Source of the DNA: a bacterium
GTDB taxonomy: Bacteria > Zhuqueibacterota > Zhuqueibacteria > Residuimicrobiales > Krinioviventaceae
Reading direction: 5' to 3'
Length of the DNA: 64,000 nucleotides
Assembly (NCBI GenBank): GCA_963693055.1
Contig: OY843751.1
Span: 1,504,001-1,568,000 of the forward strand
Numbering within the stretch: position 1 is the stretch's first letter; each line of letters opens with the position of its first letter. Shown piece after piece: positions 15,441 to 35,973 of the stretch. Under the pieces are notes generated by a model. That model was not told the DNA's origin, made no database searches, and saw nothing but the letters and a program-made list of their open reading frames with translations. The translations under genes were made by a program, and so were the position numbers.

Positions 15441-16835
15441 GTGGAAAACGAAGTAAACCAGGCAATATTAGATCAATATGATTGCATTTGTATTGAGCAA
15501 AAGGGGGCTCAAATAAAACTTGTTAGTCATATAGATCATCAACCGCAGGAACTGGAAGAACTTGAATTCTTGTTGAATACGTCTGTGATGTTTAACAGAA
15601 TTTCCAAAGAAGAATTTGTTGAGATCCAGAAAATAAATGGTATCAACAGCAGTTCAATTAAAACCCAACCTACAGAAAAATCTCATGTCATAGATGAAAG
15701 CAGCGAGAACACGATTCAATTTGTCGATGATATTATTTATCAGGCAATCAGCGACAAAGCTAGCGATATTCATTTTGAACCCTATGAAACTTTTTTTCGG
15801 ATACGATACCGTATAGATGGTGTCTTGTTGGAAGTAAAAAAAATTGACAATCAGCAAAAAAACTCTATCATTGCACGCTTAAAGATTATGGCAGAATTGG
15901 ACATAGCTGAAAAAAGACGTCCCCAGGATGGCAGAATCCGAATAAAAAAAGATTCCCAGAATATTGATATACGCGTTTCTACTTTACCTACCGATTATGG
16001 TGAAAAAGTTGTATTACGTATTCTCGACAAGTCCATCGCTACATTTGATTTGGATAAATTAGGATTAGGTGATATGGAATCACGTCTCATTGGTGATGCA
16101 ATCCAGTCGCCTTTTGGGATTATATTGGTGACAGGGCCCACCGGTAGCGGTAAAAGTACTACACTCTATTCTGTATTAAAAGAACTCAATGATCCGGGAT
16201 ATAACATCGTTACGATAGAAGATCCCATCGAGTATAACGTTGAAGGAATCAATCAATCTCATGTGCGCTCAGATATTGGATACACTTTTGCAAGCGCATT
16301 ACGTAGCTTTCTAAGACAGGATCCAGATGTAATCATGGTAGGAGAGATCCGGGACCCTGAAACAGCAGAAATGGCGGTTCGTGCATCATTAACCGGGCAC
16401 CTGGTATTAAGTACAATCCATACCAATGATGCACCGAGCACCATTACCCGTTTGATCGATATGGGCATTGAACCGTTTCTGATTGCTGGATCAATAAAGC
16501 TGGTTATTGCACAGCGACTTGTTCGGATTTTGTGCAACCAATGTAAAGAACTAGTAACAGATGAACAATTAACGTTTAGAAATATTAAAATGCATTATGT
16601 ACCGAGGGGGTGTCCCTCTTGCAGGGATACAGGATACCGGGGACGCAGGGCGTTGTTTGAGATACTGGATATAACGCAAGACATCGGGGAGATGATTGCA
16701 AAACGTGCCAGTACAACAAAGATTCGTGAGATGGCTAAAGAAAACGGAATGATATCACTGCGTGAACAAGGAGTTAAGTTAATTGAGGATGGAGTTACGT
16801 CCATTTCGGAGATAATCCGGGAAACCAGTCTATAA
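15441..16835 (+). CDS. gspE: GspE/PilB-family assembly ATPase
   Basis: ASDIHFEP, PQDGR, Walker A GPTGSGKST, EDPIE, LRQDPD..VGEIRD, GHLVLSTIHTN, two CxxC. Confidence 0.93.
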   Translation: MENEVNQAILDQYDCICIEQKGAQIKLVSHIDHQPQELEELEFLLNTSVMFNRISKEEFVEIQKINGINSSSIKTQPTEKSHVIDESSENTIQFVDDIIYQAISDKASDIHFEPYETFFRIRYRIDGVLLEVKKIDNQQKNSIIARLKIMAELDIAEKRRPQDGRIRIKKDSQNIDIRVSTLPTDYGEKVVLRILDKSIATFDLDKLGLGDMESRLIGDAIQSPFGIILVTGPTGSGKSTTLYSVLKELNDPGYNIVTIEDPIEYNVEGINQSHVRSDIGYTFASALRSFLRQDPDVIMVGEIRDPETAEMAVRASLTGHLVLSTIHTNDAPSTITRLIDMGIEPFLIAGSIKLVIAQRLVRILCNQCKELVTDEQLTFRNIKMHYVPRGCPSCRDTGYRGRRALFEILDITQDIGEMIAKRASTTKIREMAKENGMISLREQGVKLIEDGVTSISEIIRETSL

Positions 16836-16848
16836 TGTGAGGTAAATT

Positions 16849-18744
16849 ATGAAATTGCTGTACCGTCGGATAGAGATAATCTCTATCATCGGATTCGTAT
16901 GTCTATTCAACAATTTTTTTGAAAATGTATATGCCAATCCATCTGAAATAAATACCGAAATTAAAACCGACAGTAGTATTGTAATTCAGATTTTGGATTT
17001 CAAGAACACGGATATCAAAGATGTTGTCAGAGCTATTGCTGATACTTATGGATTGAACATTTTTGTAGAAGATGCTATCGATTATCGTGTTACGATTCAT
17101 CTTGAAAATGTATCCATAAACGATGCATTAAATTTTCTGGCCAATCGTGCTGATCTTGAAATTCAACAAGAGGGCAGTATTATTAAATTTCTACTGCCTC
17201 CACCCGAGCCGATTCCTCCACTTGATATATCCTTTAATGCACCCAAATTATCATTGGATGTGAAAAATGAACCAGTATCTCGGGTCGTCAAGGAAATTTC
17301 TCAAATTTGCTCAACTAATATTGTTTTGAACAAAGGAGTGAGTGGTACAGTCTCCGGGTTTTTGCAAAATCTGGATTTAGAAGAGTGCCTGGCTACTTTT
17401 TTCAGTATGAATGGTTATGAGGTTAAAAAGAAAAATAGTATTTACCATGTGGATTGGGGGATGGATTATGGAACTGAAACTACCCAGCAGAAAAGAAGGG
17501 GAAGCCGAATTGATGTTGTTGATGGGTTGATCAGTATGGATTTTCATGATGTTGAGATCAAGCAGGCAGTGCAAGAGATTGCACAGCAGGTAGAAACCGA
17601 TATAATTGTATATGGTAATTTAGAAGGGAGGATCACCGCAAAATGTTCCAATATCACTTTTGATGATGCATTAAACTATTTGTTTAAAGGTACCAAATAC
17701 ACGTTTCGCAAAGATGAAGATATATATTTTATCGGGGATAAAACCGTTCAGGGAATTAACTCCAGTAAACTGATCAAATTACAGCATTTAAAAGCTGAAG
17801 GGTTGATCGAAACCATACCAAAAGAAATAATCCAGGGTGCATCCATAAAGATCATCAAGGAACACAATGGATTGATGGTGACCGGTGCAGAGAATCTGAT
17901 TCGGGAAACTGAGGATTATATTAGGCAGATCGATTATCCCATTCCACAGATTTTGATTGAAGCACTGGTTGTGGATTATAATATGTCTGATATAGATGAA
18001 TTTAGTATCGAGGCTGGCTTGGGTGATCCCAATGCTGATGATACAACCGGTGTTTTGAATTATCGTTCCTTGTTTCCAAATGTTGAGCAATCTGCAAACG
18101 GTGACTTTTTGAACGCATCTATTGAATTATACGGTCCGCAATGGGGACTTCCCAATGTTGGAAAGCTGCCCAGCAATTTTTATATGCAAGTAAAAGCGTT
18201 GGAACAAGAGAGTAAAGCCAAAGTTAGATCACGTCCACAAATTGCAACCCTGAATGGACATACGGCAAGTATCAATATTGGCACTACGCAATATTACAAA
18301 ATTAAAACGCAAACCCCCTATCAATCAACACAGCAACTCTATGTCTCCGAGTCGGAACGTTTTGAGACCATCAAGGCCGAGATGATTCTGGAAATTACAC
18401 CCTGGGTTAGTGCATCGGGAGAGATCACAACAGAAATACATCCGGAATTTAGTACCCCCAAAGGTTCACTGGATTCAGAGACACCGCCAACAATTGATCA
18501 TAGAATTTTAAGCTCAACTATTCGATTAAAAGATGGTGAGACAATTGTATTGGGTGGATTGATCCAGGAAGTGGATTCTAAAACGTATCAGAAATTTCCG
18601 ATTTTAGGAGATATCCCTTTATTGGGCCGATTGTTTAGGAATCACAATATTCAAAAAACGACAACAGAGTTGATGATATATGTTACTCCTCACTTGTATT
18701 ATGAAGATTTGGGAAAAGTCGATGTTGAAGAAATTATCAAATAA
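16849..18744 (+). CDS. secretin (GspD/PilQ family)
   Basis: STN/N-domain repeats; QILIEA, RPQIATLNG, LKDGETIVLGGLI, PILGDIPLLGRLF, ELMIYVTP. Confidence 0.92.
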   Translation: MKLLYRRIEIISIIGFVCLFNNFFENVYANPSEINTEIKTDSSIVIQILDFKNTDIKDVVRAIADTYGLNIFVEDAIDYRVTIHLENVSINDALNFLANRADLEIQQEGSIIKFLLPPPEPIPPLDISFNAPKLSLDVKNEPVSRVVKEISQICSTNIVLNKGVSGTVSGFLQNLDLEECLATFFSMNGYEVKKKNSIYHVDWGMDYGTETTQQKRRGSRIDVVDGLISMDFHDVEIKQAVQEIAQQVETDIIVYGNLEGRITAKCSNITFDDALNYLFKGTKYTFRKDEDIYFIGDKTVQGINSSKLIKLQHLKAEGLIETIPKEIIQGASIKIIKEHNGLMVTGAENLIRETEDYIRQIDYPIPQILIEALVVDYNMSDIDEFSIEAGLGDPNADDTTGVLNYRSLFPNVEQSANGDFLNASIELYGPQWGLPNVGKLPSNFYMQVKALEQESKAKVRSRPQIATLNGHTASINIGTTQYYKIKTQTPYQSTQQLYVSESERFETIKAEMILEITPWVSASGEITTEIHPEFSTPKGSLDSETPPTIDHRILSSTIRLKDGETIVLGGLIQEVDSKTYQKFPILGDIPLLGRLFRNHNIQKTTTELMIYVTPHLYYEDLGKVDVEEIIK

Positions 18745-20113
18745 TAAATGGATTCATTCGTTTGCCTTAAAACATTTTATTCTATCCTTATTTCAATATG
18801 AAAAACGGGTGATCTGTCTTGAAATAATGGATTCGCACATCACAGTCCTTGGGCTGCTCAAGGGCAAAAATGAGATATATACCTGGTTGAATGACAGATT
18901 AGTCATTCCCAATTCTGATGATAACTTTATCAAAACAGGATTACAAGAAGCTATAAACGTTTATCCGGAAATCAAGCATTATCAGATTGTTTATCTATGG
19001 CCGGGATTAAAGACCATTTATCGTAATGAACTTGATGGAGATACATCTCCTTCATTCATGTCAATGTTAAATTCTGCTGATTTTAAAGCCGTCGAGTTGG
19101 AGACGGGTAATAAAACCAAATTGCGGGCTTTTGCAAAAAACAGTGATCTGGAAAATATAGAAAATTTATTTGATGAGATTGGATTAAACCTGGCAGGGAT
19201 TTATAAAGGCAATCTGGAATGGATTTATACGTACCTGGTTAGGAACCCAATAAAGTTTTCCGGGGAACAACGATTCGCGTATATCGATGAACAATTCACG
19301 TTGGACATATTATTCAAAGATGGAATATGTAACAATATTCAGATCCAGTCATCCATTCCTGCTCCTGTGAGCCTGTCAAAAGAATCGGAATATCAGGGCT
19401 ATGCGTGTATATGCAATCGTAATGGTGGAAAAGGGATGATACCGGACATCTCTGATGAATATGAAACTGACTGGAAGGATCCAGGTATTGTCGCTGCTAA
19501 TGGTGTAGCATTGAGTCATTATTATACTCAATTTAGTTCATTCAATTTTTTATCAAAAAAAATACACGAGAAAGTAAAATATAAAGGGATTGAGAAAAAA
19601 ATACAAAAGATTTTGGTATTGATTACTGGAATGTTAATAATTCTGAATTTTTTGCTCTTGATTCCCTCTATAATTATTGACTCAAAGCACAGTCAGTTAT
19701 TAGCTCAAAAGCAGACCGTAGAAACCCAAATTACAAAAATCAATCAGTTCGAAGCTGAGAATAAAAATCTAACAGACCAATATGAGAAACTGGTCTTGTT
19801 ACAATCACAAAAGACCAGGATCGGCAGGGCGATGTATTGTGTAAGCCAAGTGATTCCTCAGGATACCTGGTTAGAGAATATGAACTGGGGAGATACCAGA
19901 ATGAATCGACAAGCCGATGCAGATAAATTATTTATTGAGGGATATTCAAAAAAGCAGTTATCAGTCATTACATTTATAGAAAGTATGAAAGATGAACCTT
20001 TATTTGATCAGGTATCTCTTGATAATTATGATACCGGTTTTGAAAAACGTCCTGGCAGCAGTAAAGATAAAGCAGGCATCCATTTTTTAATTTCAGCGAG
20101 AGTAGTGCAATGA
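18722..20113 (+). CDS. PilM/PilN-like (GspL-like) inner-membrane platform protein
   Basis: Cytoplasmic N-terminus, one TM, coiled coil, PilN-like IPQDTWL...IEGYS; position in operon. Confidence 0.65.
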   Translation: MLKKLSNNKWIHSFALKHFILSLFQYEKRVICLEIMDSHITVLGLLKGKNEIYTWLNDRLVIPNSDDNFIKTGLQEAINVYPEIKHYQIVYLWPGLKTIYRNELDGDTSPSFMSMLNSADFKAVELETGNKTKLRAFAKNSDLENIENLFDEIGLNLAGIYKGNLEWIYTYLVRNPIKFSGEQRFAYIDEQFTLDILFKDGICNNIQIQSSIPAPVSLSKESEYQGYACICNRNGGKGMIPDISDEYETDWKDPGIVAANGVALSHYYTQFSSFNFLSKKIHEKVKYKGIEKKIQKILVLITGMLIILNFLLLIPSIIIDSKHSQLLAQKQTVETQITKINQFEAENKNLTDQYEKLVLLQSQKTRIGRAMYCVSQVIPQDTWLENMNWGDTRMNRQADADKLFIEGYSKKQLSVITFIESMKDEPLFDQVSLDNYDTGFEKRPGSSKDKAGIHFLISARVVQ

Positions 20114-20640
20114 AATCATACCTATCACAAATCACCAGGGAACAAATCTATGTTATTGCCGGATTTTTACTATTTAGCATTTTGGTATTCTTTTTTATAT
20201 CAAAACCCTTGATATCCGGTATTTATCAAGACAGTATTGATATCCGGACTATGGAACAACAGATTGAAAACGCCAAACAATGGAAAACTATTACCGGAAG
20301 GTTGAGGGAAGAGAATGAAACTCTTGCCGGTGTGATAACAAACAATCAAAAAACGTATTTATACGGCAAGAGTTCCTTTGATATCATTAAATATGTTCAG
20401 GAGAATGCAGTAAAGTCTAAAGTTAAGGTTGTATTGATTGAACCAGTGATATCATCGAAAAAGACAGAAAATCCTCAAGTGCAGTTCAAAGTAACCGGGT
20501 CTTTTCACCAAATTGGAAAGCTGGTACATACCATTGAAACGGGTCCATATCTAGTTTTTATAAAAAGCTTAACTATTGAGAAAGCAAAAAAAACAAAAAA
20601 CACGTTGATTGCAAAAGTAGTGTTGGAAATTCATCAATAA
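20110..20640 (+). CDS. PilO/GspM-like protein
   Basis: N-terminal TM, coiled coil, VTGSFHQIGKLV..IE. Confidence 0.7.
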   Translation: MKSYLSQITREQIYVIAGFLLFSILVFFFISKPLISGIYQDSIDIRTMEQQIENAKQWKTITGRLREENETLAGVITNNQKTYLYGKSSFDIIKYVQENAVKSKVKVVLIEPVISSKKTENPQVQFKVTGSFHQIGKLVHTIETGPYLVFIKSLTIEKAKKTKNTLIAKVVLEIHQ

Positions 20641-20648: not shown

Positions 20649-21128
20649 ATGAATATGGCAAAAATGACAAAGAAGAAATTTAATCTTGTTTTATTATTTA
20701 TTATTGCTATAGCTGTATGGGGCTCAAATGGTTACAGGATGATAAAAGGCATTACCCTGGGTGATTCATCAGGTGCAATGCCGGAGGTTAAAACAGGGCA
20801 AGTTCAGTTGAACTTGTTGAGTGATTCATTAGCGAGCTGGGAATATCCCAAGAGTGGACGTGATCCGTTTTTTCTGACAGTACAAAAGACTGTAGCTAAA
20901 TCAGTCTCAGCACCAAAAAGAAAAAAGCCTGAGATAATACCTCCCAGACTTTTATTAACCGGTATAATTCTGGACCATAATGAAAGAGTAGCAGTGATAG
21001 AAACCCCTGACCGGAATGTTCATTTTTTAAAAGAAAAAGCAGAACTAGATTCCCTGGTGATCGATAAAATTGCCGAGAAGCATATTGTTGTGAAATACAA
21101 AAGGAAAACATTTGAATATTCTTTATAG
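20649..21128 (+). CDS. PilP/GspC-like protein
   Basis: N-terminal TM, RDPF, LLLTGII....VAVI, IDKI. Confidence 0.6.
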   Translation: MNMAKMTKKKFNLVLLFIIAIAVWGSNGYRMIKGITLGDSSGAMPEVKTGQVQLNLLSDSLASWEYPKSGRDPFFLTVQKTVAKSVSAPKRKKPEIIPPRLLLTGIILDHNERVAVIETPDRNVHFLKEKAELDSLVIDKIAEKHIVVKYKRKTFEYSL

Positions 21129-22503
21129 AAAATATTTCTTGTCGGAAATCAAAGATGAACAAGGATATACTTTATTAACAGTTTTGGTTTTTATGATCAT
21201 CATCATGTTGATTTTATTATGCCTGATAGAATATGTTCATGTACAATATCGATTCATTTTAAAAGATTCGCACCAGGTACAGGCAGATTATTTGGCTGAG
21301 AGCGGTGTAGCTTATTTCCTGAATGATATTGACAAATATTTTGAACAAATACAATTTAATCCCACACAATCTTTTGATTGTTTCTATCCGATTGAACAAG
21401 ATACGGTTTATATTCAAGCCATGCCGTGGGGGGGATTCATCCGTGTAGAGGTGAATGCAAAGTATAAAAGTGCTTTTTCACGAAAACAGGCAATGATTGG
21501 TCAAGGATTGACGGAATCCATGGATAATGCTATTGTATTGGATAACCTTGATAATCCATTGATTGTTACAGGAGAGACAGAGATAACGGGTAATGTGGCT
21601 GTTGGTACAAGAGGCGTGAAATCCGGTAATATTAAAGGTATTCGCTTCAAGGGAAAACGGCTTGTGACGGGTGATATTATCACAAAAAACCGGTCACAGA
21701 TGTCAGCAATCAATCCACAGGTCTCTTTTGAAGCAACCAAAACAATGCTGGATGGATTGCAATCCCAACCGGATAAAGATCCTTTCAATGCGGGTTCTGT
21801 AATTGATGAAGAACGGCTACCATCCTGTCTGATTTTTGAGGATGATTTTGAATTTACCGATTGGTCGTTGCTGGATTCAACTAAAGCATGTACGGTTGTA
21901 ACCACAGGTTCATTACTTGTCGGGCCAGATCTTGATCTTCCCAGACAATCCATGCTGGTTGCCGCTGACACTTTGATATTAAAGAATTGTAATCTAGACC
22001 AGGCGCTGATTTATGGTAAAAAACAAATACAGGTCTCCGGAAATGTTTGCGGTAATGCGCAGTTTCTGTCTGATGAACAGATTATCGTGAAAAACGGAGT
22101 GACCCTGTGCTGGCCATCTATTTTGTATGTGAACCGAGAGGTCCCTAATGCGCAACCGTTCGAAGCAATCAAGCTGGAGGGTGGGACATCAGTTCGAGGG
22201 GCGGTAGTTTTATATACATCTGAAAAAACAAACAAGAATGTGATGAACCTATGCAGGATTAAAGTTGAAAAATTTGCGACAATGCATGGATTGCTTTATA
22301 CCAATCTTTCTGCTGATATGGGAGGAGAGTTGACAGGCCATGCATCTGTTTCTTCCTTTTATTTGTATTATTCACCAACACATTATATCAATTACCTGTT
22401 GGATGCCCGGATTGATCGAAATGGTTTGGATCCCGAGTTTCCCATACCGGTCCGGATTGGAGAAGAGCCTACATACCGGATCATTAACTGGCAGAATTTG
22501 TAA
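21112..22503 (+). CDS. large GspK/PilX-like minor pseudopilin
   Basis: G|YTLLTVL prepilin-like N-terminus without Glu5; A.YLAESGV; long beta-rich C-terminus. Confidence 0.7.
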   Translation: MNILYRKYFLSEIKDEQGYTLLTVLVFMIIIMLILLCLIEYVHVQYRFILKDSHQVQADYLAESGVAYFLNDIDKYFEQIQFNPTQSFDCFYPIEQDTVYIQAMPWGGFIRVEVNAKYKSAFSRKQAMIGQGLTESMDNAIVLDNLDNPLIVTGETEITGNVAVGTRGVKSGNIKGIRFKGKRLVTGDIITKNRSQMSAINPQVSFEATKTMLDGLQSQPDKDPFNAGSVIDEERLPSCLIFEDDFEFTDWSLLDSTKACTVVTTGSLLVGPDLDLPRQSMLVAADTLILKNCNLDQALIYGKKQIQVSGNVCGNAQFLSDEQIIVKNGVTLCWPSILYVNREVPNAQPFEAIKLEGGTSVRGAVVLYTSEKTNKNVMNLCRIKVEKFATMHGLLYTNLSADMGGELTGHASVSSFYLYYSPTHYINYLLDARIDRNGLDPEFPIPVRIGEEPTYRIINWQNL

Positions 22504-22508: not shown

Positions 22509-22877
22509 ATGAGGAATATGATTAAAGCTATAATTAAAAGAGAACAGGGATTCACCCTGGTTGAAAACATGATCGCACTGGCATTGATTACGGCGGTTAT
22601 AATCCCATCCAGTATGTTTATGGTGAAATTGGCACATAATCAAAAATCTTGCGATATGAGCACTGCTACACAATTGTGCAAGACAACTGTTGAATGTACA
22701 ATTGCCAATGAAGATTATTTACCTAAACAATGGCAAAAAGCAGTTAATAGTCGGGAGTGGCTGATCCAGCGGGAGATTGAGATTGAGGATCACTTGATTC
22801 ATATTTTTGTAATGGCAAAACCCGTGAATCGTGAGAACTGGATAAACAGGTTATATTTATGTCGATATCAAAATTAA
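22509..22877 (+). CDS. minor pseudopilin
   Basis: EQG|FTLVE N-terminal cleavage/methylation motif. Confidence 0.85.
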   Translation: MRNMIKAIIKREQGFTLVENMIALALITAVIIPSSMFMVKLAHNQKSCDMSTATQLCKTTVECTIANEDYLPKQWQKAVNSREWLIQREIEIEDHLIHIFVMAKPVNRENWINRLYLCRYQN

Positions 22878-23410
22878 AAGAGGAATCAGGATATACCCTG
22901 GTTGAGATCATGGTTGCCTTGTCCATGTCATTTATTGTTATAGGATTGGGTTACGCTGCTTTACACTTTACACAGGTCCGCTATAAAGAATGGCAGGTAC
23001 AGGAGCAGGTGATGCGCAAACAGCACACCATTCAAAAAATGATCTATAATGATATCTCCCAGGCAAGAAAGGTCTTGAGCATTGAGCCAAACCTGCTGCA
23101 ACTGCAGGATAAACGAGATAGTCTACTGGTTTATAGTTACAAAGACAGCATATTGTATCGCAATGAACGAATAATGAATAACAAGCAGTTACCTATGTTA
23201 TCCTGTTATTTCCTTGGTGATGAGCCCGAGTCTATTTTCGATTTCAAAGTGTTTATGGATCAGCTTGAAAGTCAAACCGTTGATAACGATTTATTACAAA
23301 CAGATTCTACTTTTATTCAATGCGTGCAATTCTATTATGAAATTCAGAATCCTACAGGAGAGATTTTGAATGCCCATGCAGTGATTAACCTGAGAAATAA
23401 AGAGTACTAG
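22859..23410 (+). CDS. minor pseudopilin (GspJ/PilW-like)
   Basis: ESG|YTLVEIMVAL motif. Confidence 0.85.
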   Translation: MSISKLKEESGYTLVEIMVALSMSFIVIGLGYAALHFTQVRYKEWQVQEQVMRKQHTIQKMIYNDISQARKVLSIEPNLLQLQDKRDSLLVYSYKDSILYRNERIMNNKQLPMLSCYFLGDEPESIFDFKVFMDQLESQTVDNDLLQTDSTFIQCVQFYYEIQNPTGEILNAHAVINLRNKEY

Positions 23411-23411: not shown

Positions 23412-24563
23412 ATGAACAATTCCTTTTCCATACCCGAAGCAATTGTAGAGCAAAAACGAAAATCCCCAAAAAAGAGGGATGAAAAAAAACAATCCGCTTT
23501 ATCTCTGAAATTAAATTTTGGATTATCAAGGATTAAAAAACAGGAGGTAGCCCAGGCATTACGGCAGCTGGCAACGCTGGTGCAGATGCGATTTCCTCTG
23601 GATAAATCCCTGTTCATTGTTTGTGAACAGATACAGAATGACGCATTGAAAAAGATATTTGAGGATTGCAAGTGTAGAGTTGAAAAGGGAGAAACCCTGG
23701 CAGATGCGTTGTCAGTGTATGCAAAATATTTTCCACAAGCTGTATTAAAATTTACAATGATAGGAGAAGTCTCCGGTAATCTGGGGGACACGCTTGACCA
23801 GGCGGCATCACAAATGGAAAAGATGCTGAAACTGCGGCGCAAGCTGTTTTCCGCATTATCTTATCCTGCTATCGTTGTGATCGTTGCCATCTTTGCGGTT
23901 GGATTTCTACTGGCTGTCGTTGTTCCAACTTTTTCGGATGTGTTTTCCGATTTTGGTGCACAACTCCCCATTGCTACCCGGATTTTGGTTACCATGGGAG
24001 ATTTCCTGGTGAATTACTGGTATGTGCTGGTACTGTCGGTTTTGGGGATTGTCATGCTCGTTCAGCGAATGTGGAAGATTCCCCGGCTGCAAATACGGAT
24101 GGAAAAGTTGATCTGGAAAATGGCTGTTATTGGTCCGGTGATTAAGAAAGAAAAGTTGACCCGGTTTGTACGCACACTTGGTATGCTATTGCAGAATGGT
24201 ATTTTGTTACCTGAAGCCATTTCCATCAGCGGAAAGACATCTACAAGTTTAAATATTGAAAAAAAATCAGAAATAATTATTGAAAGAATTAAAAAAGGTG
24301 AGTCGTTTTATTCCGCTCTGAACGAGTCCGCTATCTTTCCAGCCATGCTGGTACAAATGGCAAGAGTAGGTGAAGAAGCTGGAGTACTGGGAGACATGCT
24401 GGACCGTTCCGCGGAATATTATGAATCTGAAATTGACGCGGCAATCGAAACATTGAATGCCGTTCTGGAACCTATTCTCATAATTGGATTGGGTATTGTG
24501 ATGGGAGCAATTGTTATTGCCATGTACTGGCAAATTTTTAATATCGTTGATGTTATTCAATAA
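23412..24563 (+). CDS. gspF: GspF/PilC inner-membrane platform protein
   Basis: RQLATL, GEVSGNL, ALSYP, VVPTF, GEEAG.L, LEP. Confidence 0.93.
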   Translation: MNNSFSIPEAIVEQKRKSPKKRDEKKQSALSLKLNFGLSRIKKQEVAQALRQLATLVQMRFPLDKSLFIVCEQIQNDALKKIFEDCKCRVEKGETLADALSVYAKYFPQAVLKFTMIGEVSGNLGDTLDQAASQMEKMLKLRRKLFSALSYPAIVVIVAIFAVGFLLAVVVPTFSDVFSDFGAQLPIATRILVTMGDFLVNYWYVLVLSVLGIVMLVQRMWKIPRLQIRMEKLIWKMAVIGPVIKKEKLTRFVRTLGMLLQNGILLPEAISISGKTSTSLNIEKKSEIIIERIKKGESFYSALNESAIFPAMLVQMARVGEEAGVLGDMLDRSAEYYESEIDAAIETLNAVLEPILIIGLGIVMGAIVIAMYWQIFNIVDVIQ

Positions 24564-27025: not shown

Positions 27026-30000
27026 ATGAAAAAAGCTCTTTTTCAAATTTGTCTTTTTATAATTGTTTTTATTAATCTCGAAAAGTGTTTAGCACAAGAA
27101 TATCAAGCATCTGAACCAACAGTATCACAATTTTTATATAATAGAAATGATTTTCCTTTAAACTATAATGGTGATTTAAATTTTAGTTATCCTTTGTTAA
27201 ATGTTCCTGGTATTAATGGATTGAATTTCGATTTAAATTTATTATATACCTCAGGTGGTGGCGTTAAAGCATCTGAAAATGGTTCGTGGGTGGGATTAGG
27301 ATGGAATTTAAATACATGTCAAATTAATTGTGCTCCAGCATTTAATGAATCTAATGGTGTAGAAAGTAATGCCAATGATATGTTTTATGTAAATTTACCT
27401 GGTTTAAATCATGCATTTTATAATATTTCTGCAACTTCTGAAGAAATTTGGCGAACAAATATTTTTGATAAGATTAATATTTTAGATATTGAATCCGATT
27501 TAGAAACTGAAGATTATACTGGATTTGTAATTACTTCAAAGGATGGTACAAGATATGTATTTAATAGTCCTTTGAAAAGAACATCACCTAAACCATTGAA
27601 TAATCATTCATTACATCTTTATGGGGATTTTACTAATGTATGGTATACATATGCGATAAGATTAACAGCAATATTAGGCCCAGATTATATTGATGGTGGT
27701 GGAACATCACAATATATACCAGACGATGGTGGTTCTGATTATGGATCTTGGATAAAATTTGAATATGACACACCTTTAGTTCGTACAATTCAAATGGGGA
27801 GTTCGACGACACAAAGAATTGAGATTGGATATCTTAGTAAAATTATAACTCCAACATATAAAGCTAAATTTAATATAGCATATCTCCAAGAAGAACAAAC
27901 AAGTAATGAATATTTACTGACTTTTGATGATTTTGATAATCCATTATTTAATATTGGATATTTAAAAAGATTAAAATCTATACAACTTTTTACAAAAGAA
28001 GCTGATGAGTCATCAAGTACAAATATTTTAAAAGAAGTTTCTTTTAATATCACGAAAGAATTTGGATGGTATGATAGTAGTTTTTTAACAACATACAATA
28101 GAACAAAATTGAATAATGTCACAATTTATGGTTCTGGGGGGAGTTCTAATAATTCAGTGATTGATAATATTGCATTTGAATACTATGATTATACACCTCA
28201 GAATGGATATTCAGATCCATGGGGATTTTATTCTCGCTATCAAGATGCAAATAATTGGACTGATTCAGAACAAGTTGATCGGTGGATGTTAAAAAAGATA
28301 ATATATTATTCTGGTGGTTTTGAACAATTTGAATATGAATCAGATAAATTTATTACTTGTTCTGGTAGCCCAATGTATTCTGAAGGTGAATTAGTCTATG
28401 GAGGTGGTGTTCGTATTAAGAAAAAAACTGTGAATGACGGTTTGGGGCACTCCTATGACTATTTATATTCATATGCTATTAATCATAATGGATATGGTTT
28501 TATAAGTGGATATCCTGGATTAGCTTTTAAAAATAACAAATCAAATAGACTGCATTTCTCCTCTGTTGGTTCTTCATATAATAATGATGTACATTATCCA
28601 GATATTACAGTCCAAAATCCTGACCTAAGTAAAACTACTTATTATTATACTACTGCAGCTTCTGCATATAGTAGTTCTTATGCTACCAGTGACGAACTTG
28701 CTCCTCCTACGTGTGATAATACCGAAAGCAACCAAGGGATTGTTTATACTCGCCAGAACGAAGAGAAAAAGTATCATGATTGTATTGGATATGTGAATGT
28801 TGTTTCCAACCCAGGATTTTTGTTATACTGGGATGATGTATATTTTATGCATGAATTTACTAATAGCTGGAAACGAGGTATCGTTTGGAAAATAGTGAAA
28901 AAGAATATTAGTAATTTACCAATTCAAGAAGTGAAAAATTATTATTATATGAAACCAATGGGTGCCCGTCAATATCAAGTTTCTTTTGATGGTTCTGCTG
29001 TCCATACTTGCTATTTTTCTTATGGATACCCACGTTTAGATGAAGTTATAACTAAAACATTTGATTCGAATGGACAAAATCCAGTTGAATCAGTTGTATC
29101 TTATGAATATCACTCGACAAGCAAATTAATTACAAAAATAACAGAAACCAATAGTGATGGCAATGAACGAAGGGCTCGTTATTATTACATGATTGACGGT
29201 GAATTTGAAATTGATGCAAATAGTGATGCGGCAACAGTTTTTACTAATAAACATATGTATTCACAAATAAACGCAGTGGCTGTGCACAATTCTAATGGTT
29301 GGGATTATAGTACTGGTGGGAGTCTTGAAAGTCTGGAAATTACCTGGTGGGATGAAGTATCTAAAAAACAAAGATATAAAACAATTTGGACAGATGATGA
29401 AGGGGATAAAGACGCAGAATCAGTTATATTACCTGGGAGTATTGATGTTGATGATGAGTGGATAAAAATCAGTATGGAGAATTATGATTCTCATAAAAGA
29501 TTAATCGAATCAATTGATGGAAATGGAAATGTAACCAAATATTATTATGGAACTAGTAATTCACCATTTTCGAATTCCACTTCAAATTATTATGTAACAG
29601 GCATTCAAAAACAAAATGGTACTTTAGATACTGTTTTACCTTCGATTTCTGGGAATAGACCGGGTGATGATATGTTTTTGGAATACCAATATAATAACTT
29701 GGGACAGGTCACAAAGATTGTTGATGAAAATGGTAAATCAATATATTATGAATACGACAATAGTTGGAGGTTGTCGGGTCAAAAAAATAATTCTCAAACT
29801 TCAATTCTATCATATAACTATCATAATAAAGCAGAAGGTGCAGATGGTGGTGTATTTGATTCTGATGATCCTAATGCAATTAATACTAGTAAATACTATA
29901 ATAGTACAGATGTTGGCAGCTTTGTGAAATATTTTGATGGGCTTGGTAGAGAAATTCAATCCCAGATTAATTTAGGTAATTCGATGATTTTACAAGGAAA

Positions 30001-31885
30001 AGTCTATAATTCTATGGGCCAGCTTGCAGTAATTACGAAACCTATTGAAGATGTGCAAATGACCAGTCATGATTATAGTACTTCTCTCATTGAAGCTGAT
30101 TGGATCATAGGTAATGCTATGACATCAGAGTCAAAAGTTAATAACTATTATACCAATACTTCAAATGATGAGAGTTTGCCACCACACGCAGGTGGGTATC
30201 CTTACACATTTACAAAATATGTTAATGGGTTTAGCGATAGAATAGAACAAGTTGGAAAACCTGGTTATGATTATAGGATTGTGTTAAATGGAAACCAAAT
30301 TGAATACTCTTATGGTACAAATGATGATATCATTACTATTGGTTCAAAGAGTTATTCCGCTCAAAAACTTTATAAAACAATTGTAACTGATGAGTGTAAT
30401 AAAAAAGTTACTGAATATAAAGATATTTTTGGTAATACGGTATTAAAAGTAATTGATCCAGGCTCAACATCAGTGAATTTAAATTTGCAAACCGGTTTTA
30501 TATATGATATTCGAGGTAGTTTAGTTAAAATTCTTCCACCAAAATCAAATTTGTCAGGTACAAGTCCTTACTGTACAAACATGACTTATAATTCGATTGG
30601 ACAAATGCTAACTAAAAGCTCACCCGATGCAGGATTGGTAGAGTACAAGTATGATAATAATGGGAATTTAAGATTTATAAGAGATGCAGTACATCGTTCC
30701 ACAACAGATTTAGACCGATTTGTTTTTAATATTTATGATGAATTAAATCGACTAATTATTACCGGTGAAACAACAAATACTTCATATACTCCTGATTGGA
30801 CTGAATTGAATGGAAACAATGATTATATTGATGGGGCAAATGATTTTGAGAATTTTGACACGCCTGGCACAACATACCAAATTGTTAATTGTTATGATGA
30901 GGCACCTGATTATGGTTCTGAAGGTGTATGGAAAGATGCACTGGATCGGGGAACGTTGAATAATCTTAAGGGGCGTTTGGCGGCAACGGCTTATTATGAT
31001 AAAGTTTCAGGAAAATATGGATATACATATTACTCTTATAATAACGATGGAAATATTGAATCACAATATCAAGATTTACCTGGGAATGAACTTGGTTGTA
31101 AAAAAATTAATTATTTTTATGATTGGCAAGGTAATATAACTAATATCTATTATCAACCATTTACTCTTGATCGTTTTTATATTAATTATGAATATGACTT
31201 GGCCGGGAGAGTTTCAGCGATTAATGCAAGACTAAGAAGTTGGGGGAGTTTTTTTCCAATAACTGAATATGAATATTGGCCAACTGGCCAGGTTAAATCT
31301 GTAATTTATAATTTGTATGACGATGATGACTCTAATGACAAAACTATAAACTATCAAATGCATATACGTGACTGGATTAAGAAAATTGATTTAAATAATA
31401 CATTTCAGGTAGAGTATGATTTCTTTAATAATGGAAATATTAAAGATATGGACCAAAAAGTTGATGGTGATCTTGATAATTCCCTTGCTGATGAAACGAG
31501 TTATGGATATGACATTTCATATGATAATGCTTACAGGTTGAAAGGAGCAACAGCTACAAATACACCAGCTATTAGCGTAGGATATAGTTATGATGATAAT
31601 GGTAATATTTTAGGATTGGGACGTGGTAGCTCAAGTACTCCTTCTCAAAATTATTTTTATATTGCAAATAAAAATCAGCTTGCCTATTTATCGGGGCAAA
31701 CAAATCCTAATTTTAAATATGATTTAAATGGTAATGTTACGGATGTTACTGACAAGGGTATCGAAGATATATATTATAATTATTTAAATTTACCCTATCA
31801 AATTGATTTTAGTTCTGATTGGATTAAATATGGTTATGATGCTACTGGTAAGCGGGTTTATAAAAAAGCATATATTTCAGAATAA
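27026..31885 (+). CDS. Rhs/YD-repeat shell protein, N-terminal part (no Rhs core)
   Basis: Signal peptide; G.L...PL..VPG...Y.SGGGVK....WVGLGWNL; YD repeats (YFDGLGR, YKYDNNGNL, YDLAGRV, YDLNGNV); ends YDATGKRVYKK. Confidence 0.9.
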   Translation: MKKALFQICLFIIVFINLEKCLAQEYQASEPTVSQFLYNRNDFPLNYNGDLNFSYPLLNVPGINGLNFDLNLLYTSGGGVKASENGSWVGLGWNLNTCQINCAPAFNESNGVESNANDMFYVNLPGLNHAFYNISATSEEIWRTNIFDKINILDIESDLETEDYTGFVITSKDGTRYVFNSPLKRTSPKPLNNHSLHLYGDFTNVWYTYAIRLTAILGPDYIDGGGTSQYIPDDGGSDYGSWIKFEYDTPLVRTIQMGSSTTQRIEIGYLSKIITPTYKAKFNIAYLQEEQTSNEYLLTFDDFDNPLFNIGYLKRLKSIQLFTKEADESSSTNILKEVSFNITKEFGWYDSSFLTTYNRTKLNNVTIYGSGGSSNNSVIDNIAFEYYDYTPQNGYSDPWGFYSRYQDANNWTDSEQVDRWMLKKIIYYSGGFEQFEYESDKFITCSGSPMYSEGELVYGGGVRIKKKTVNDGLGHSYDYLYSYAINHNGYGFISGYPGLAFKNNKSNRLHFSSVGSSYNNDVHYPDITVQNPDLSKTTYYYTTAASAYSSSYATSDELAPPTCDNTESNQGIVYTRQNEEKKYHDCIGYVNVVSNPGFLLYWDDVYFMHEFTNSWKRGIVWKIVKKNISNLPIQEVKNYYYMKPMGARQYQVSFDGSAVHTCYFSYGYPRLDEVITKTFDSNGQNPVESVVSYEYHSTSKLITKITETNSDGNERRARYYYMIDGEFEIDANSDAATVFTNKHMYSQINAVAVHNSNGWDYSTGGSLESLEITWWDEVSKKQRYKTIWTDDEGDKDAESVILPGSIDVDDEWIKISMENYDSHKRLIESIDGNGNVTKYYYGTSNSPFSNSTSNYYVTGIQKQNGTLDTVLPSISGNRPGDDMFLEYQYNNLGQVTKIVDENGKSIYYEYDNSWRLSGQKNNSQTSILSYNYHNKAEGADGGVFDSDDPNAINTSKYYNSTDVGSFVKYFDGLGREIQSQINLGNSMILQGKVYNSMGQLAVITKPIEDVQMTSHDYSTSLIEADWIIGNAMTSESKVNNYYTNTSNDESLPPHAGGYPYTFTKYVNGFSDRIEQVGKPGYDYRIVLNGNQIEYSYGTNDDIITIGSKSYSAQKLYKTIVTDECNKKVTEYKDIFGNTVLKVIDPGSTSVNLNLQTGFIYDIRGSLVKILPPKSNLSGTSPYCTNMTYNSIGQMLTKSSPDAGLVEYKYDNNGNLRFIRDAVHRSTTDLDRFVFNIYDELNRLIITGETTNTSYTPDWTELNGNNDYIDGANDFENFDTPGTTYQIVNCYDEAPDYGSEGVWKDALDRGTLNNLKGRLAATAYYDKVSGKYGYTYYSYNNDGNIESQYQDLPGNELGCKKINYFYDWQGNITNIYYQPFTLDRFYINYEYDLAGRVSAINARLRSWGSFFPITEYEYWPTGQVKSVIYNLYDDDDSNDKTINYQMHIRDWIKKIDLNNTFQVEYDFFNNGNIKDMDQKVDGDLDNSLADETSYGYDISYDNAYRLKGATATNTPAISVGYSYDDNGNILGLGRGSSSTPSQNYFYIANKNQLAYLSGQTNPNFKYDLNGNVTDVTDKGIEDIYYNYLNLPYQIDFSSDWIKYGYDATGKRVYKKAYISE

Positions 31886-31916: not shown

Positions 31917-33593
31917 ATGAAAAACGAAATTTTTGTATTATTAATAGTTGTTTTGGTTTTCTTTGGTGTTGCAACTTCTCAGAAAGTTGAAAGAGAAGAA
32001 CTTTTGGAAAAAAGAACATTAACAAGTAAAACTTTTCTAAATTCAGATAATAGCTATACTACAGAAATTAGTTCAGGATTTGTTCATTATTTGGATGGAA
32101 GCGGCAAGTACCAGGAAATAAATCGTAATATTGTTCCCTCATCAACTGATTATGATTTTGAAGTATCTGAAGGCATGTACCAGGTTTTTTTCAAGTCAGA
32201 TATTAGCCAACCTAATGCTGTAGTTTGTCAAACCCGTGGTGGTGCAGGTATTAATACCCAGTTATGGGGAATGGGTTACCTTGATATTTCTACCAAAGAA
32301 TACCAGGTATTACATAAAGTCCAACCAACTGATGCTGTAACAAAGGGAAATGAAATATATTATACAAATGTTTTTGAAAATGTTGATATGAGAATTCAAT
32401 ATTCGGAAACAAAACTAAAAGAAGAAATCTTTTTAACCCAAAAAGCCAGAGCAAGCCTGCCTGTGCCCGAAAATTTTAAAATGAACAGCAAGCAGACATA
32501 CCTGGTTTTTATTCATAAAATTGACATGGATATGCCTTCAATTGCGCCATTTGCTCAAAAACAATCATTAAAATCAAAATCAGAAGCTTATGAAGGTAAG
32601 GATCGAATTGAATTCAAGGATATTAAAGGAGATGTTAAATTTTATTTGCCATTAGATTACGCTTTTCTGGAATCTGATAGAGACTCTGTATTCTCTGAAA
32701 ACATAACAGAGATTACCAAGCGAATAATAGTTGAAAATGGAGAAAGATTCTTGATGGCTGGCGTACCTCTTTCATGGGTTGAGAACAGAACGGAGGGTAC
32801 TATTGTATTTGATCCTACGGTTTCTATTCAACCTACTACTGCTGCGGTTGGGAAAGATGCAATGATTTTAGAGTACCCAGTTAATTCTGAATGTGTATAT
32901 AAGAACTATGGAGCTTATGAAAGAATTTATGCAGAAACATCACGTCCTTGGAGGACATTGATACAATTTGATGTTTCATCTATACCAGAATCGGCTCAAA
33001 TTAATGAAGCAAATTTAACTTTGTATCTTTTGAAAAATGCATCTAATTCTGAAGCATCAAAGACATTGTATTGTTACCCTATTCTTAGAGAGTGGAAAGA
33101 AGGGTCTGCTGCAAATGCCGTTAATTCAAGTGCTTATGATGGGGTGACATGGTATGAACGCTTTTGGCTAAATTCAGTAAGCGTTGCAACTGCAAATAAT
33201 GCTTTTAACAGTAATGATCCATGGGATGAGAGCTTGGCCGATTGGCGCACTCAAGGTGGTGACTTTGGAAGTTTAACTGTTTCTAAGGTTATAACCGAAT
33301 TAGCATATCACTTTTGTGATGTTGATATTAAAGATGCAGTTGAAGGCTGGGTTGCTAATCCGGATGATAATTTTGGAATAATGTTGAAAACTGACGAATT
33401 AGTTACATACGCTACTTCATCATCTGCTTCTTCTGCTACAACTTATTACGAGTTTTGGTTTGTTGCCTCTGATAATACCAGTTATTCTTCAAGTTATTTT
33501 CCAAAACTGGTGATTGATTATACTCTTGAAACACGCAGTACCTATTATGTACGAGATGCAGCGGGTAATGTTATTGCCACCTATGAACGATAA
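31917..33593 (+). CDS. secreted DNRLRE-like domain protein ending in a single Rhs repeat
   Basis: Signal peptide; ELLEKRT..SKTF.N.D.SYT...HY; KDA.I...NYG...LIQFDVS.IP...A.L.LY...W.....NFGIML...PKLVIDY; last residues TYYVRDAAGNVIATYER. Confidence 0.82.
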   Translation: MKNEIFVLLIVVLVFFGVATSQKVEREELLEKRTLTSKTFLNSDNSYTTEISSGFVHYLDGSGKYQEINRNIVPSSTDYDFEVSEGMYQVFFKSDISQPNAVVCQTRGGAGINTQLWGMGYLDISTKEYQVLHKVQPTDAVTKGNEIYYTNVFENVDMRIQYSETKLKEEIFLTQKARASLPVPENFKMNSKQTYLVFIHKIDMDMPSIAPFAQKQSLKSKSEAYEGKDRIEFKDIKGDVKFYLPLDYAFLESDRDSVFSENITEITKRIIVENGERFLMAGVPLSWVENRTEGTIVFDPTVSIQPTTAAVGKDAMILEYPVNSECVYKNYGAYERIYAETSRPWRTLIQFDVSSIPESAQINEANLTLYLLKNASNSEASKTLYCYPILREWKEGSAANAVNSSAYDGVTWYERFWLNSVSVATANNAFNSNDPWDESLADWRTQGGDFGSLTVSKVITELAYHFCDVDIKDAVEGWVANPDDNFGIMLKTDELVTYATSSSASSATTYYEFWFVASDNTSYSSSYFPKLVIDYTLETRSTYYVRDAAGNVIATYER

Positions 33594-33650: not shown

Positions 33651-34706
33651 ATGAAAATTAAAAAATATTTGCTTTTGATCGTAATTTTTTGTAGTATTTT
33701 AAATATTAATCTTTATGCCAGTGATGAATGGTCTTTTATGATCAATGACCATGTAGGGAATACCCGTGCTGTATTAGATGAATACGGCAATACCCGTGCT
33801 ATTTACGATTATTACCCATATGGACTTGAAATGCATTCGATGGTTAGCGGCAAGGAAACCCGATTCAAGTACACTGGGAAAGAATTGGATGAAGCTGGTG
33901 GGTTAAATTGGTATTACTATGGTGCTCGTTTTTATGATCCTCAAATTGGACGTTTTATGGGTGTTGATCCACTAGCTGTAAAATATCCAACATTAAGTCC
34001 TTATGTATATTCAGCAAATAATCCAGTAATGTTATTTGATGTTGATGGAAGATATATTATGCGAGGTAATATGGTTTTGAGGTATCCAATAGGTATGGCA
34101 TATACAATAGAATATGGTAGTATGGTTAGTACTTTAGGTGCATTTGCAATATATGGAACACAACATTTATTAGGGGATCATAATTACGATTTTTTTACCC
34201 TCGCATCACTAACACCTGCAGATAATGTTTTTATGATAGGTTCAAAATTAATGACTTATGCAAGTAAAACTGGAATAATAAGTGAAAAAGCATTGATGGT
34301 TGCTGGTTTATCTATGGGAAAATTGCCTCTTGATATGGTTCAAGGTTTAACTGATAATAATACAGTTAACAAAACATACCGTGATATGGCAATACAATAT
34401 GTATTAGTGAATTTAGGAGTTGCTGTAGATCGCACTCATAGATTATGTGCAGTGGATCGTACTTTTCCAACTATTGAAGTTGTGAATATGAAATTAATTG
34501 AATCTCTATTAGGATATAAAGCGAATCCAGCAGACTTTGTAGAGGTTGTAGAATCATTTTTTAAAATGAAAAAAAACGAATTTATTGAAGATCATGGAGA
34601 AAAGTTGTATGATAAATTAAAAGAAGCTTATGATAAAGAAAATACTTTTATGCCCTTGGATCGTGATAGATCATTTACATTTGATATACATTTTGAGATT
34701 AAATAA
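33651..34706 (+). CDS. Rhs-associated core plus C-terminal putative toxin, with its own signal peptide
   Basis: MKIKKYLLLIVIFCSILNINLYA; DHVGNTR, YYPYG, YTGKELD, YYGARFYDPQIGRF..VDP, SPYVY..NNP...DVDG. Confidence 0.9.
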   Translation: MKIKKYLLLIVIFCSILNINLYASDEWSFMINDHVGNTRAVLDEYGNTRAIYDYYPYGLEMHSMVSGKETRFKYTGKELDEAGGLNWYYYGARFYDPQIGRFMGVDPLAVKYPTLSPYVYSANNPVMLFDVDGRYIMRGNMVLRYPIGMAYTIEYGSMVSTLGAFAIYGTQHLLGDHNYDFFTLASLTPADNVFMIGSKLMTYASKTGIISEKALMVAGLSMGKLPLDMVQGLTDNNTVNKTYRDMAIQYVLVNLGVAVDRTHRLCAVDRTFPTIEVVNMKLIESLLGYKANPADFVEVVESFFKMKKNEFIEDHGEKLYDKLKEAYDKENTFMPLDRDRSFTFDIHFEIK

Positions 34707-34869
34707 ATTCAGTTTACATCTCTTTTATGATAGCTTATATTTTTTGAAGAAAAACTATGAATTAAAAATAACCAAGAATCTATTAGTGAAAGTACTTAAT
34801 ATGACTATTAAAAATTCAAAATGAAAGAATGTATGGAAAATATTTAATATTAATCCATGATAAAGGAAA

Positions 34870-35973
34870 ATGGATATGATAAAAAAAGTTTTTATCTTTA
34901 TATTTGGAGTGCCATTTTATTTTGTATTACAAACATTGTGTGTTGCTGACGAACCAATATTGGGTGAAGGTAAATTTAATGCTGAAATTACAAATACTGC
35001 AAACATGATAGCCTTTATTCAAGACAAGAAAAATGATTATTTAATACAACCTGAAAATTCAGATATCTATTTATTAAATCCAAATAATGGTAAGCGACAA
35101 CACCTGACAGAAGATAAATATCAGTATGAAGAATTGCAATGGTCACCTGATGGCAGAAATATGTTGTTCACATGCAGACGTAATAATGATTTGGGAGCAA
35201 GTTTCGATGCTTCAGAGAATCCAGCCTATCTAGCTATTTATAGTTTTGACTCACTTGAGGAACGATTGTTGGAAAATGTGATTAAAAATAATGTTATAAA
35301 ATTGGGGAATACCTATTATAAAGGGAATAAAGATTTTAAATGGCACACTGAAGACAAATATTTCAATACTTCCAGAATTTCATGGCTTAATAATAATAGA
35401 ATCTCTTTCTTTAGGAAATTTCCATTTGGTATAGATAGAAGAATAGGAGATTTATGTACAACCGATTTACATGGTAATAATCTAAAAGTTTTTAGAGATT
35501 TTAAAAAACCTAGAAAATGGTTTGGTGGTAAAATCTGGTTAAATGAAATAACACTGTTATTTGTACACTTGTTAAATGAGGACAAGTGGGATTTAGTTAT
35601 GGTTAATACAAAAAATGATTCAATTATCCCACAAAATTATCCTCAAAATGATATTTATGAGATAGATGATATATTTTGTATTTCTAATAATAAAAAATAT
35701 TTACTTTGTGAGGAATCGAAATTTGACACAAAGATTAATAAACAATTTAATCGTATGGCTTTATATAATTTAGATACTGGCATAAAAAGGATTCTTATGA
35801 ATGATGTATTTGGTGCTTGTTTTTCACCTGATGATTCAATGATAGCATGTATTCATGGTGATCATTCGGGTAATAATGATATCTTTTTATTGGATATAAA
35901 CGGAAAAATTGTAAAACAATTAACTTTTGATGGAGGACGTAAAAGTTCAATTGACTGGTGTTCAGTGAAATAG
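34870..35973 (+). CDS. TolB-like (PD40) beta-propeller, candidate immunity or accessory protein
   Basis: Signal peptide; DIYLL, WSPDGR, FSPDDS, DIFLLD...QLT; directly after the toxin gene. Confidence 0.7.
   Translation: MDMIKKVFIFIFGVPFYFVLQTLCVADEPILGEGKFNAEITNTANMIAFIQDKKNDYLIQPENSDIYLLNPNNGKRQHLTEDKYQYEELQWSPDGRNMLFTCRRNNDLGASFDASENPAYLAIYSFDSLEERLLENVIKNNVIKLGNTYYKGNKDFKWHTEDKYFNTSRISWLNNNRISFFRKFPFGIDRRIGDLCTTDLHGNNLKVFRDFKKPRKWFGGKIWLNEITLLFVHLLNEDKWDLVMVNTKNDSIIPQNYPQNDIYEIDDIFCISNNKKYLLCEESKFDTKINKQFNRMALYNLDTGIKRILMNDVFGACFSPDDSMIACIHGDHSGNNDIFLLDINGKIVKQLTFDGGRKSSIDWCSVK

Follow-up and report, generated by a model that had tools for sequence, protein, structure and literature searches.

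A PilT-less, type IVa-derived machine and its likely Rhs toxin cargo in a Zhuqueibacterota genome

Machine and Rhs genes of the locus

The 64,000-nucleotide stretch analysed here (the window; C1:1504001-1568000) belongs to a closed 6.5-Mb genome (G000), 100% complete, and carries at positions 15441-35973, all on the plus strand, the genes of a pilus-like machine with a secretin, followed by an activator gene, three Rhs genes and a propeller gene. From the letters of the window, an original prediction had read this region as a type II secretion system (T2SS) dedicated to Rhs export. What is new here is a likely cargo, proposed from gene context, for a machine that is already known but unexplained.

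The cluster begins with an assembly ATPase of the GspE/PilB family (15441..16835; PF00437, E=1.7e-136), 66% identical to that of a second copy in the same genome, and a secretin of the machine clade described below (16849..18744; PF00263), 80% identical to its second copy. These are followed by a PilM/PilN-like alignment subunit (18680..20113; PF05137 at residues 388-473), a PilO/GspM-like subunit (20110..20640; PF04350), a PilP/GspC-like subunit assigned by its position (20649..21128; no Pfam match), of which homologues are found there in most loci, and a large GspK/PilX-like minor pilin with weak pilin matches only (21112..22503), which is kept in homologous loci. Two further minor pilins (22509..22877 and 22859..23410, both PF07963, N_methyl), the inner-membrane platform protein GspF/PilC (23412..24563; PF00482), the major pilin (24564..24992; N_methyl, with a type IVa-like model, 79% identical to the second copy), which served as clade marker, and a prepilin peptidase (24992..25777; PF06750 and PF01478) complete the set. 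Thus the predicted inventory of ATPase, secretin, PilMN/O/P-like proteins, four pilin-like genes, GspF and peptidase stands, with the PilP-like protein placed by position and one weak pilin. No PilT is found in the machine cluster of the window, again as predicted; this genome encodes PilT at a separate, complete type IVa-like locus, which has a PilB, a PilC and a pilin of its own as well as the third secretin of the genome. In many clusters of KSB1, Calditrichia and Ignavibacteria, a CsgG/LpoB-like lipoprotein gene, possibly a pilotin, follows the major pilin (L042:8283-8876, L044, L050, L052 and others); it is present in neither machine copy of this genome.

Next on the same strand is a sigma-54 activator lacking a sensor domain (25741..26694; PF00158, AAA+, and HTH_8), and then the signal-peptide Rhs genes, an arrangement that had been described correctly. 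The activator occupies the same position before rhsA in G084, G098, G040 and L057. Between it and rhsA are two 23-bp palindromes (26739..26825, unstranded), the sole matches in the genome at ≤3 mismatches, and related palindromes precede rhsA at three of five other aligned loci (G084, G040, L057). Judged from the sequences, they are likely binding sites of the activator.

RhsA (27026..31885) consists of a signal peptide and a shell of YD repeats (PF05593 and TIGR01643 matches) including DUF6443, and stops before the last shell strands. RhsB (31917..33593) has a signal peptide, a WapA-like N-terminal region with DNRLRE and a C-terminal Rhs strand, and scores over the cut-off of NF033679. RhsC (33651..34706) has a signal peptide, an Rhs core with a DPxG-type cleavage motif and a 206-residue tip, a putative toxin; its core matches TIGR03696 at 68.7 bits (cut-off, 32.5), and both core aspartates are kept. 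The starts 31917 and 33651 are likely corrections for the second and third genes, supported by signal-peptide-like N-termini and purine-rich leaders, and a 351-residue form of RhsC already on record agrees with the start at 33651. All three pieces begin in a signal-peptide-like manner by a hydrophobicity rule. The fourth gene, with which the predicted region ends, is not an Rhs gene but encodes a TolB-like propeller protein with a signal peptide (34870..35973; partial match to TIGR02800), so that the Rhs set consists of the three preceding genes. From its position 3′ of the tip, the propeller protein is probably a periplasmic immunity protein; because this immunity candidate has a signal peptide, the putative target of the tip points to the envelope.

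The tip itself matches only itself among 1.84 billion representative sequences; it has no Pfam match, its Atlas matches are all below 0.9, and a single-sequence model (predicted local distance difference test, pLDDT, 37) is unusable. RhsA and RhsB have no sequence match in the PDB at E 0.01, and the Atlas matches of the RhsB N-terminal region are unnamed clusters only.

The second whole machine copy (C1:2177812-2188176) is directly followed by a three-part Rhs (1704, 169 and 335 residues), whose middle domain and tip differ from those of the window; the similarity of RhsC to this copy ends near residue 170. Hence both machine copies of this complete genome are located directly 5′ of a three-part Rhs.

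Assembly of the split shell

When RhsA, the RhsB tail and RhsC are aligned singly onto the one-gene Rhs proteins of other machine loci, they are collinear: RhsA breaks off immediately ahead of the last shell strands, the RhsB tail is the next strand, and RhsC begins at the core; about 30 residues between the RhsB tail and RhsC have no counterpart. The same three-piece breaks occur at five loci in four genomes. A frameshift or pseudogene as the origin of the split was ruled out by the signal peptide of each piece, these recurrent breaks and two identical assemblies; since the sequence is the same in both (over 26600-36172), the split is not an assembly slip, although two assemblies of one sample are not independent support. 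In a complex model of RhsA residues 1040-1619, the RhsB tail and the RhsC core, the score was 0.88 against 0.27 for the best control, with contact agreement of ≥96%, partner pLDDT of ≥84 and RhsB residues 549-558 in contact with RhsC. Among reference pairs, 51 of 78 solved and 2 of 108 mismatched ones reach the mark applied to such models, and the two parts of a split shell may do so through their likeness to solved Rhs folds. Collinearity and model together predict that the three pieces reassemble after crossing the inner membrane, which upholds the suggestion that the Rhs can be assembled from parts.

Splits are also found at other points: before DUF6443 in many Bacteroidia, and after the DNRLRE region in KSB1 and Calditrichia. 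Five genes in three genomes consist of only a signal peptide, the last core piece and a tip, and are located inside machine operons; one of the five has a TseH-like tip. Among the tips encoded next to other machines are a TseH-like domain and an M23 peptidase. At L080, L112, L133, L142, L143, L149, L164, L174, L175, L188 and L193, an OmpH/Skp-like gene and a conserved lipoprotein of about 205 residues directly precede the first Rhs gene; they are possibly a periplasmic chaperone pair for folding of the shell.

Related shells are known from other export contexts. Those of type VI secretion system (T6SS) Rhs proteins and of Tc B/C toxins share the YD repeats, the core with aspartate motifs and the variable tip, and Tc shells are also made of two chains. 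They differ in that the window proteins have signal-peptide-like starts and that PAAR, VgrG and a sheath are missing here: VgrG (TIGR01646, PF04717), PAAR and VipB have no match anywhere in the complete genome, though the models may miss divergent Bacteroidota-type parts. The predicted absence of VgrG, PAAR and a type IX secretion system (T9SS) signal from the Rhs proteins is borne out as well; no T9SS signal is seen on the Rhs pieces of the window or on a flanking partner, even though the genome encodes SprA and two PorU over cut-off. Gram-positive WapA, whose surface region holds DNRLRE in streptococci, is likewise a Sec-exported Rhs shell with a variable tip and works as several fragments, according to the accessible text of PMC12704120; however, it is one gene, cut after export, with no outer membrane to cross, whereas the window Rhs is three genes, each with a signal peptide, and its DNRLRE region is attached close to where the shell ends.

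Classification of the machine

The machine is not a canonical T2SS, in this respect unlike the original prediction. Curated T2SS models all stay under their cut-offs (bits obtained/required: gspD, 200.6/351; gspE, 536/630; gspF, 297/424; gspG, 44.5/88.9), and so do the type IVa models PilB (542/676) and PilQ (238/284). A check for the GspC/L/M platform gave PilN- and PilO-like matches and one weak GspM match. In a quick FastTree phylogeny of the C-terminal 340 residues, 23 machine secretins form one clade (support 98) apart from 11 other secretins and from the few T2SS references included, all three of them proteobacterial, which group in a clade of their own (support 99); the window secretin shares one clade with those of Bacteroidia. 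In a quick ATPase tree (48 rows), the T2SS references are again apart (support 99), and the enzymes of the Fibrobacteres-Chlorobi-Bacteroidetes (FCB) bacteria form two groups, largely by phylum; by sequence, a single origin of the two may still be compatible with this tree. The model of the major pilin (pLDDT 70.5) resembles Thermus PilA4 (Z 9.7, root-mean-square deviation [rmsd] 3.4, 109 aligned residues) and PilV (Z 8.5) more than PulG (Z 4.6, rmsd 4.7, 100 aligned).

PilT was not found in any of 32 Bacteroidia genomes carrying the machine (0/32); 27 of 28 other FCB genomes encode it elsewhere. The use of a PilT encoded elsewhere, which had been named in advance as a reason to doubt the prediction, was rejected as the general case because none was found in the 32 Bacteroidia and because PilT of this genome belongs to a complete locus of its own. 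A second type IV system of the phylum has its secretin gene directly before pilT (L208, L210, L211, L212, L222, L223).

Canonical T2SS (Pul, Xcp, Gsp) are comparable in having a secretin, one ATPase, a platform, pilins and no retraction ATPase, and periplasmic cargo would be expected of them; but the machine misses the gspD/E/F/G cut-offs, falls outside the T2SS clade in both trees and has a pilin nearer to type IVa. With type IVa pili it shares the modelled pilin fold and Pfam PilN and PilO, but not PilT, nor scores that reach the PilB and PilQ cut-offs. By sequence and model, it fits a PilT-less, type IVa-derived lineage, the “Bacteroidetes T2SS”, which was described in Cytophaga hutchinsonii (CHU_3191-3201) with the same parts (Wang 2017; PMC5553014) and was found to cluster with type IVa pili, possibly as a new secretion system (Denise et al. 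2019; PMC6668835). As far as the accessible text of these sources goes, this system has in common with the window the inventory of D, E, F, G, O/peptidase, minor pilins and PilM/N/O/P-like proteins, and the Bacteroidia loci examined here have the F-G-O-E-D order that the CHU numbering implies; the match to C. hutchinsonii is one of inventory, of gene order in Bacteroidia loci and of the clade shared with Bacteroidia secretins. The lineage is extended here beyond its published range to KSB1, Calditrichia, Cloacimonadota, Ignavibacteria, Kryptonia, Rhodothermia and Balneolales. In C. hutchinsonii, mutants are impaired in cellulose use and in adhesion to cellulose, and no direct cargo is named in the accessible text (PMC5553014). 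The word “Rhs” occurs in the accessible text of neither PMC5553014 nor PMC6668835, and no direct cargo is identified there.

Linkage of machine and Rhs across genomes

Within the phylum of the window, a full-length secretin, 43-57% identical, is present in 18 of 166 other genomes; Rhs lies beside it in 10 of them and is absent in one (G142), the contigs of six break off, and one was not retrieved. A scan with a pilin alignment, of which the best 80 of 97 loci were kept, covered eight named groups (KSB1, Calditrichia, Cloacimonadota, Ignavibacteria, Kryptonia, Rhodothermia, Balneolales and Bacteroidales) and found an Rhs gene in 51 of these best 80 loci, and in 34 of the 43 that are ≥15 kb; at L071, L083 and L095, Rhs cores lie just outside the retrieved locus (at L095 via contig-number matching). 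A single-sequence GspF search of the genome contigs gave no matches.

Since the pilin-scan set leans to the query, 401 Bacteroidia genomes were drawn evenly. The pilin is found in 60 of these (59/400 without the unpublished G300), and an Rhs core in 58 of the 60 machine genomes (57/59 without G300) versus 175 of the 341 others. Sixty of 63 pilin loci were examined, leaving out G211 (the sample centre; its locus L128 was negative), G300 and one copy at a contig edge. An Rhs gene lies within about 10 kb in 35 of the 60 (20 kb retrieved), 20 being recognized by the core profile and 15 by similarity to a shell half; within 30 kb the count is at least 44, with at least nine beyond the 35 found by core, among them L150, a lone pilin in an Rhs-rich genome. 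By chance, at most 2.3 and 4.4 loci, respectively, would be expected. Clusters that usually lack rhs neighbours, the other ground for doubt named with the prediction, are not what was seen, as most do have them.

Of 49 large Rhs proteins encoded beside the machine, 43 begin in a signal-peptide-like manner by the hydrophobicity rule, versus 0 of 8 Tc-type controls. All three Bacteroidota plasmids among the 40 matches listed carry both machine and Rhs, and a Persicobacter plasmid has a two-gene Rhs on both sides of the machine. Such plasmid copies raise the question of whether the two merely share mobile islands or insertion hot spots with no functional link. The spread of the machine is indeed patchy (18/166 in the phylum, 60/401 in Bacteroidia), transposases are found nearby, and the Rhs genes have a guanine-plus-cytosine (GC) content of 31% versus 39%. 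This explanation is nevertheless improbable: ATPases and secretins sort largely by phylum, and therefore the pairing spans deep splits; it is kept across different gene orders, on both sides and both strands; signal-peptide tip cassettes are located inside machine operons; and other secretin loci, taken as control, have no Rhs core (0/21). An Rhs label at L207 in this control set, where 204 residues match an inner segment of one query, has no core and was not counted.

Or the machine may be a general secretion system of the FCB bacteria for surface proteins, with Rhs as one cargo among fibre-like proteins, adhesins and lipoproteins. The cellulose and outer-membrane phenotypes of Cytophaga (PMC5553014, accessible text) would agree with this, as would the fibre-like, SprB-like and OmpH-like genes that recur beside the machine, the 15 fibre-like genes of this genome that all follow the second copy, and clusters with no Rhs. 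Against it, no other neighbour is nearly as constant as Rhs, the sole Rhs core of several genomes adjoins the machine, and the Cytophaga authors themselves are doubtful about the missing porins as direct substrates (PMC5553014, accessible text), so that a machine without preference for toxins seems rather unlikely, though less so than a chance sharing of islands.

In our literature search, which covered full texts and had supplements and most subscription papers outside its scope, no published report of the machine-Rhs pairing or of a three-part Rhs was found, and “DUF6443” had no match; neighbouring genes could be visible in the locus figure of Wang 2017 or in the Denise 2019 tables.

Machine-free Rhs and an alternative exit

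Forty machine-free Rhs loci were drawn from the best-scoring cores of the Bacteroidia search; eight Tc-like loci and eight with no signal peptide, orphan or with no visible neighbours were set aside. At 16 of the remaining 24, a neighbouring gene carries a T9SS type A signal (at one of them with E 0.001); its product is often small and composed of a signal peptide, a single Rhs hairpin and the T9SS signal. Such small proteins lie beside Rhs at L238:8362-8811, L240, L241, L252, L258 and L261, and are candidate adaptors that lend the T9SS signal by strand donation. Flanking type A genes were found at none of 56 machine-adjacent Rhs loci with a local profile, in agreement with Pfam; at L107, L108 and L110, a hairpin strand-donor partner is present but lacks the T9SS signal. 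Because the partner is found at 16/24 machine-free and 0/56 machine-adjacent loci, the comparison suggests that the machine and the T9SS-signal partner are two alternative exits for one cargo class.

Earlier reports deal with related toxins, so far as their accessible text extends: a T9SS-signal neighbour was noted for Porphyromonas gingivalis Rhs (Moradali 2019; PMC6775972), T9SS was proposed as the route of TANFOR toxins (Jana 2020; PMC7073777), and delivery of teneurin-like shells was left undecided (PMC13018210). P. gingivalis Rhs and TANFOR resemble the present proteins as signal-peptide polymorphic toxins of Bacteroidota whose route was proposed from neighbours, but they adjoin T9SS cargo, whereas the loci here adjoin a secretin machine with no flanking type A gene. 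Zhang et al. 2012 assigned signal-peptide Rhs to a default “T2SS/Sec” route that lacks signature neighbours (PMC3482391, accessible text), which differs from the present proposal in being a default Sec route rather than a secretin machine.

The T9SS also bears on another possibility, that the machine is a short, non-retracting adhesive pilus for cell contact, and that the Rhs leaves by other means (T9SS with no visible signal, vesicles or lysis), the two being linked by one attack behaviour. The pilin models, which are type IVa-like and not PulG-like, and the PilM/N/O/P-like set are what such a pilus would have; Cytophaga mutants adhere less to cellulose (PMC5553014, accessible text), SprA is present in 28 of 37 tested genomes, and machine-free Rhs are common. 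This is hard to reconcile with the absence of T9SS-signal partners just where the machine adjoins (0/56 versus 16/24), and with the nine of nine gut Bacteroidales genomes that have machine and Rhs and in which no SprA was seen. We regard it as unlikely, although it is the strongest of the competing explanations.

Other genes and side observations

Upstream on the minus strand of the window is a mobile region (110-12303) with cas6, a second DNA polymerase III beta-clamp gene, an N6 methylase, a resolvase and several transposases. A FISUMP-domain protein and a 153-residue T9SS-signal protein with a similar short N-terminal domain (12823-14087, minus strand), possibly a partner pair, are divergent from the machine. 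An XRE regulator gene (14777-15115, plus strand) lies upstream of the machine ATPase, and a radical SAM gene similar to PA0069 and spore photoproduct lyase (36888-37910, plus strand) comes after the immunity candidate.

The genome has 15 genes with a fibre-like C-terminal motif, and every one of them lies in a single array immediately behind the second Rhs locus (G000:C1:2195605-2223300, partly L002); orphan tip cassettes follow this array. The motif resembles tail-fibre chaperone ends, and the proteins are possibly receptor-binding fibres; fibre-like genes flank Rhs at L047, L102, L193, L197 and other loci. Orphan Rhs tip-immunity cassettes are located in G000 at C1:5148400-5159400, 2229900-2233700, 362800 and 1118500, with core remnants that short GC-rich inserts break at one common position, and the largest array is adjoined by an open reading frame that is presumably GIY-YIG-like. 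In environmental Bacteroidia, Tc-like genes of the SpvB/TcdB type lacking signal peptides were also seen (L152:3-2384, L224-L230), one of them beside the machine.

A proposed route for Rhs export

Taken together, gene context makes it likely, at a probability of roughly 0.65, that the PilT-less, type IVa-derived machine pushes Rhs toxin capsules, presumably folded in the periplasm, out through its secretin against rival bacteria. The machine genes are followed by the activator and by three Rhs genes with signal-peptide-like starts. The activator would bind the palindromes and turn on the Rhs genes, and Sec would move the three chains to the periplasm. There, according to the model, RhsA would form the shell, the last strand would be added by RhsB, and the core of RhsC would plug the shell with the tip inside. 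As in other Rhs proteins, the core would then cut off the tip, while the propeller protein would guard the periplasm of the producer. Finally, a short pilus would drive the capsule, whole or in parts, out through the secretin, and RhsB may hold it at a surface by its DNRLRE region. Machine-free relatives appear to use the T9SS-signal partner for the export step.

Several points weigh against this reading. The link to export is drawn from gene context. A whole capsule has about 2,460 residues, which is a concern for passage in one piece, as T2SS cargoes are not known to reach this size; the parts may be exported separately instead. No canonical sigma-54 -24/-12 promoter was found before the Rhs genes. 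The loci include kin that are not independent, and therefore the linkage statistics overstate the association. Three of the 60 Bacteroidia loci have long flanks and no Rhs core within 30 kb among the matches listed (L167, L168, L182), 13 more end at a contig break within 12 kb, and no Rhs was seen in G142, L070, L085, L127, L128 and L132. Signal-peptide Rhs, split ones included, also occur in machine-free genomes, and none of 20 such genomes tested has any secretin; since, moreover, 8 of the 24 machine-free loci lack an adjacent T9SS partner and fit neither exit, other exits must exist. As to the T9SS comparison, the local profile behind the 0 of 56 was built mostly from machine-free positives, and Pfam, applied to 104 C-termini beside the machine, gave a type A cargo two genes downstream at L195 and type B cargo beside Rhs at L142, L151 and L183. 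The nine SprA-negative gut genomes are close kin and incomplete, while SprA is encoded in this genome as in most of those tested. In Cytophaga, machine mutants impaired in cellulose use had hardly changed supernatant profiles (PMC5553014, accessible text).

The claim of dedication therefore holds in part. The machine is almost always accompanied by Rhs, but signal-peptide Rhs is common where there is no secretin, so the dedication is one-directional, and the cellulose phenotype of Cytophaga (PMC5553014, accessible text) also speaks against a strict form of it.

A broader proposal, to which we give slightly less than even odds, is that the FCB bacteria own an antibacterial secretion system that arose from type IVa pili independently of T2SS, and whose main cargo is Rhs capsules put together in the periplasm from shell, strand-donor and warhead subunits that are exported separately; free-standing signal-peptide warheads would load a shared shell, and the strand donor would pick the exit, machine or T9SS.

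Implications

If one toxin shell is built by three chains that are exported separately, it would be a rare kind of strand-donation assembly. Cytophaga hutchinsonii and Flavobacterium johnsoniae, both listed with the cluster (PMC5553014, accessible text), are cultured models with genetics; gspD, gspF and gspG mutants of the former are already available. If Rhs export by this machine is true, it could be a widespread and overlooked competition system, present in about 15% of the sampled Bacteroidia (60/401), in several uncultured FCB phyla and in gut Bacteroidales.

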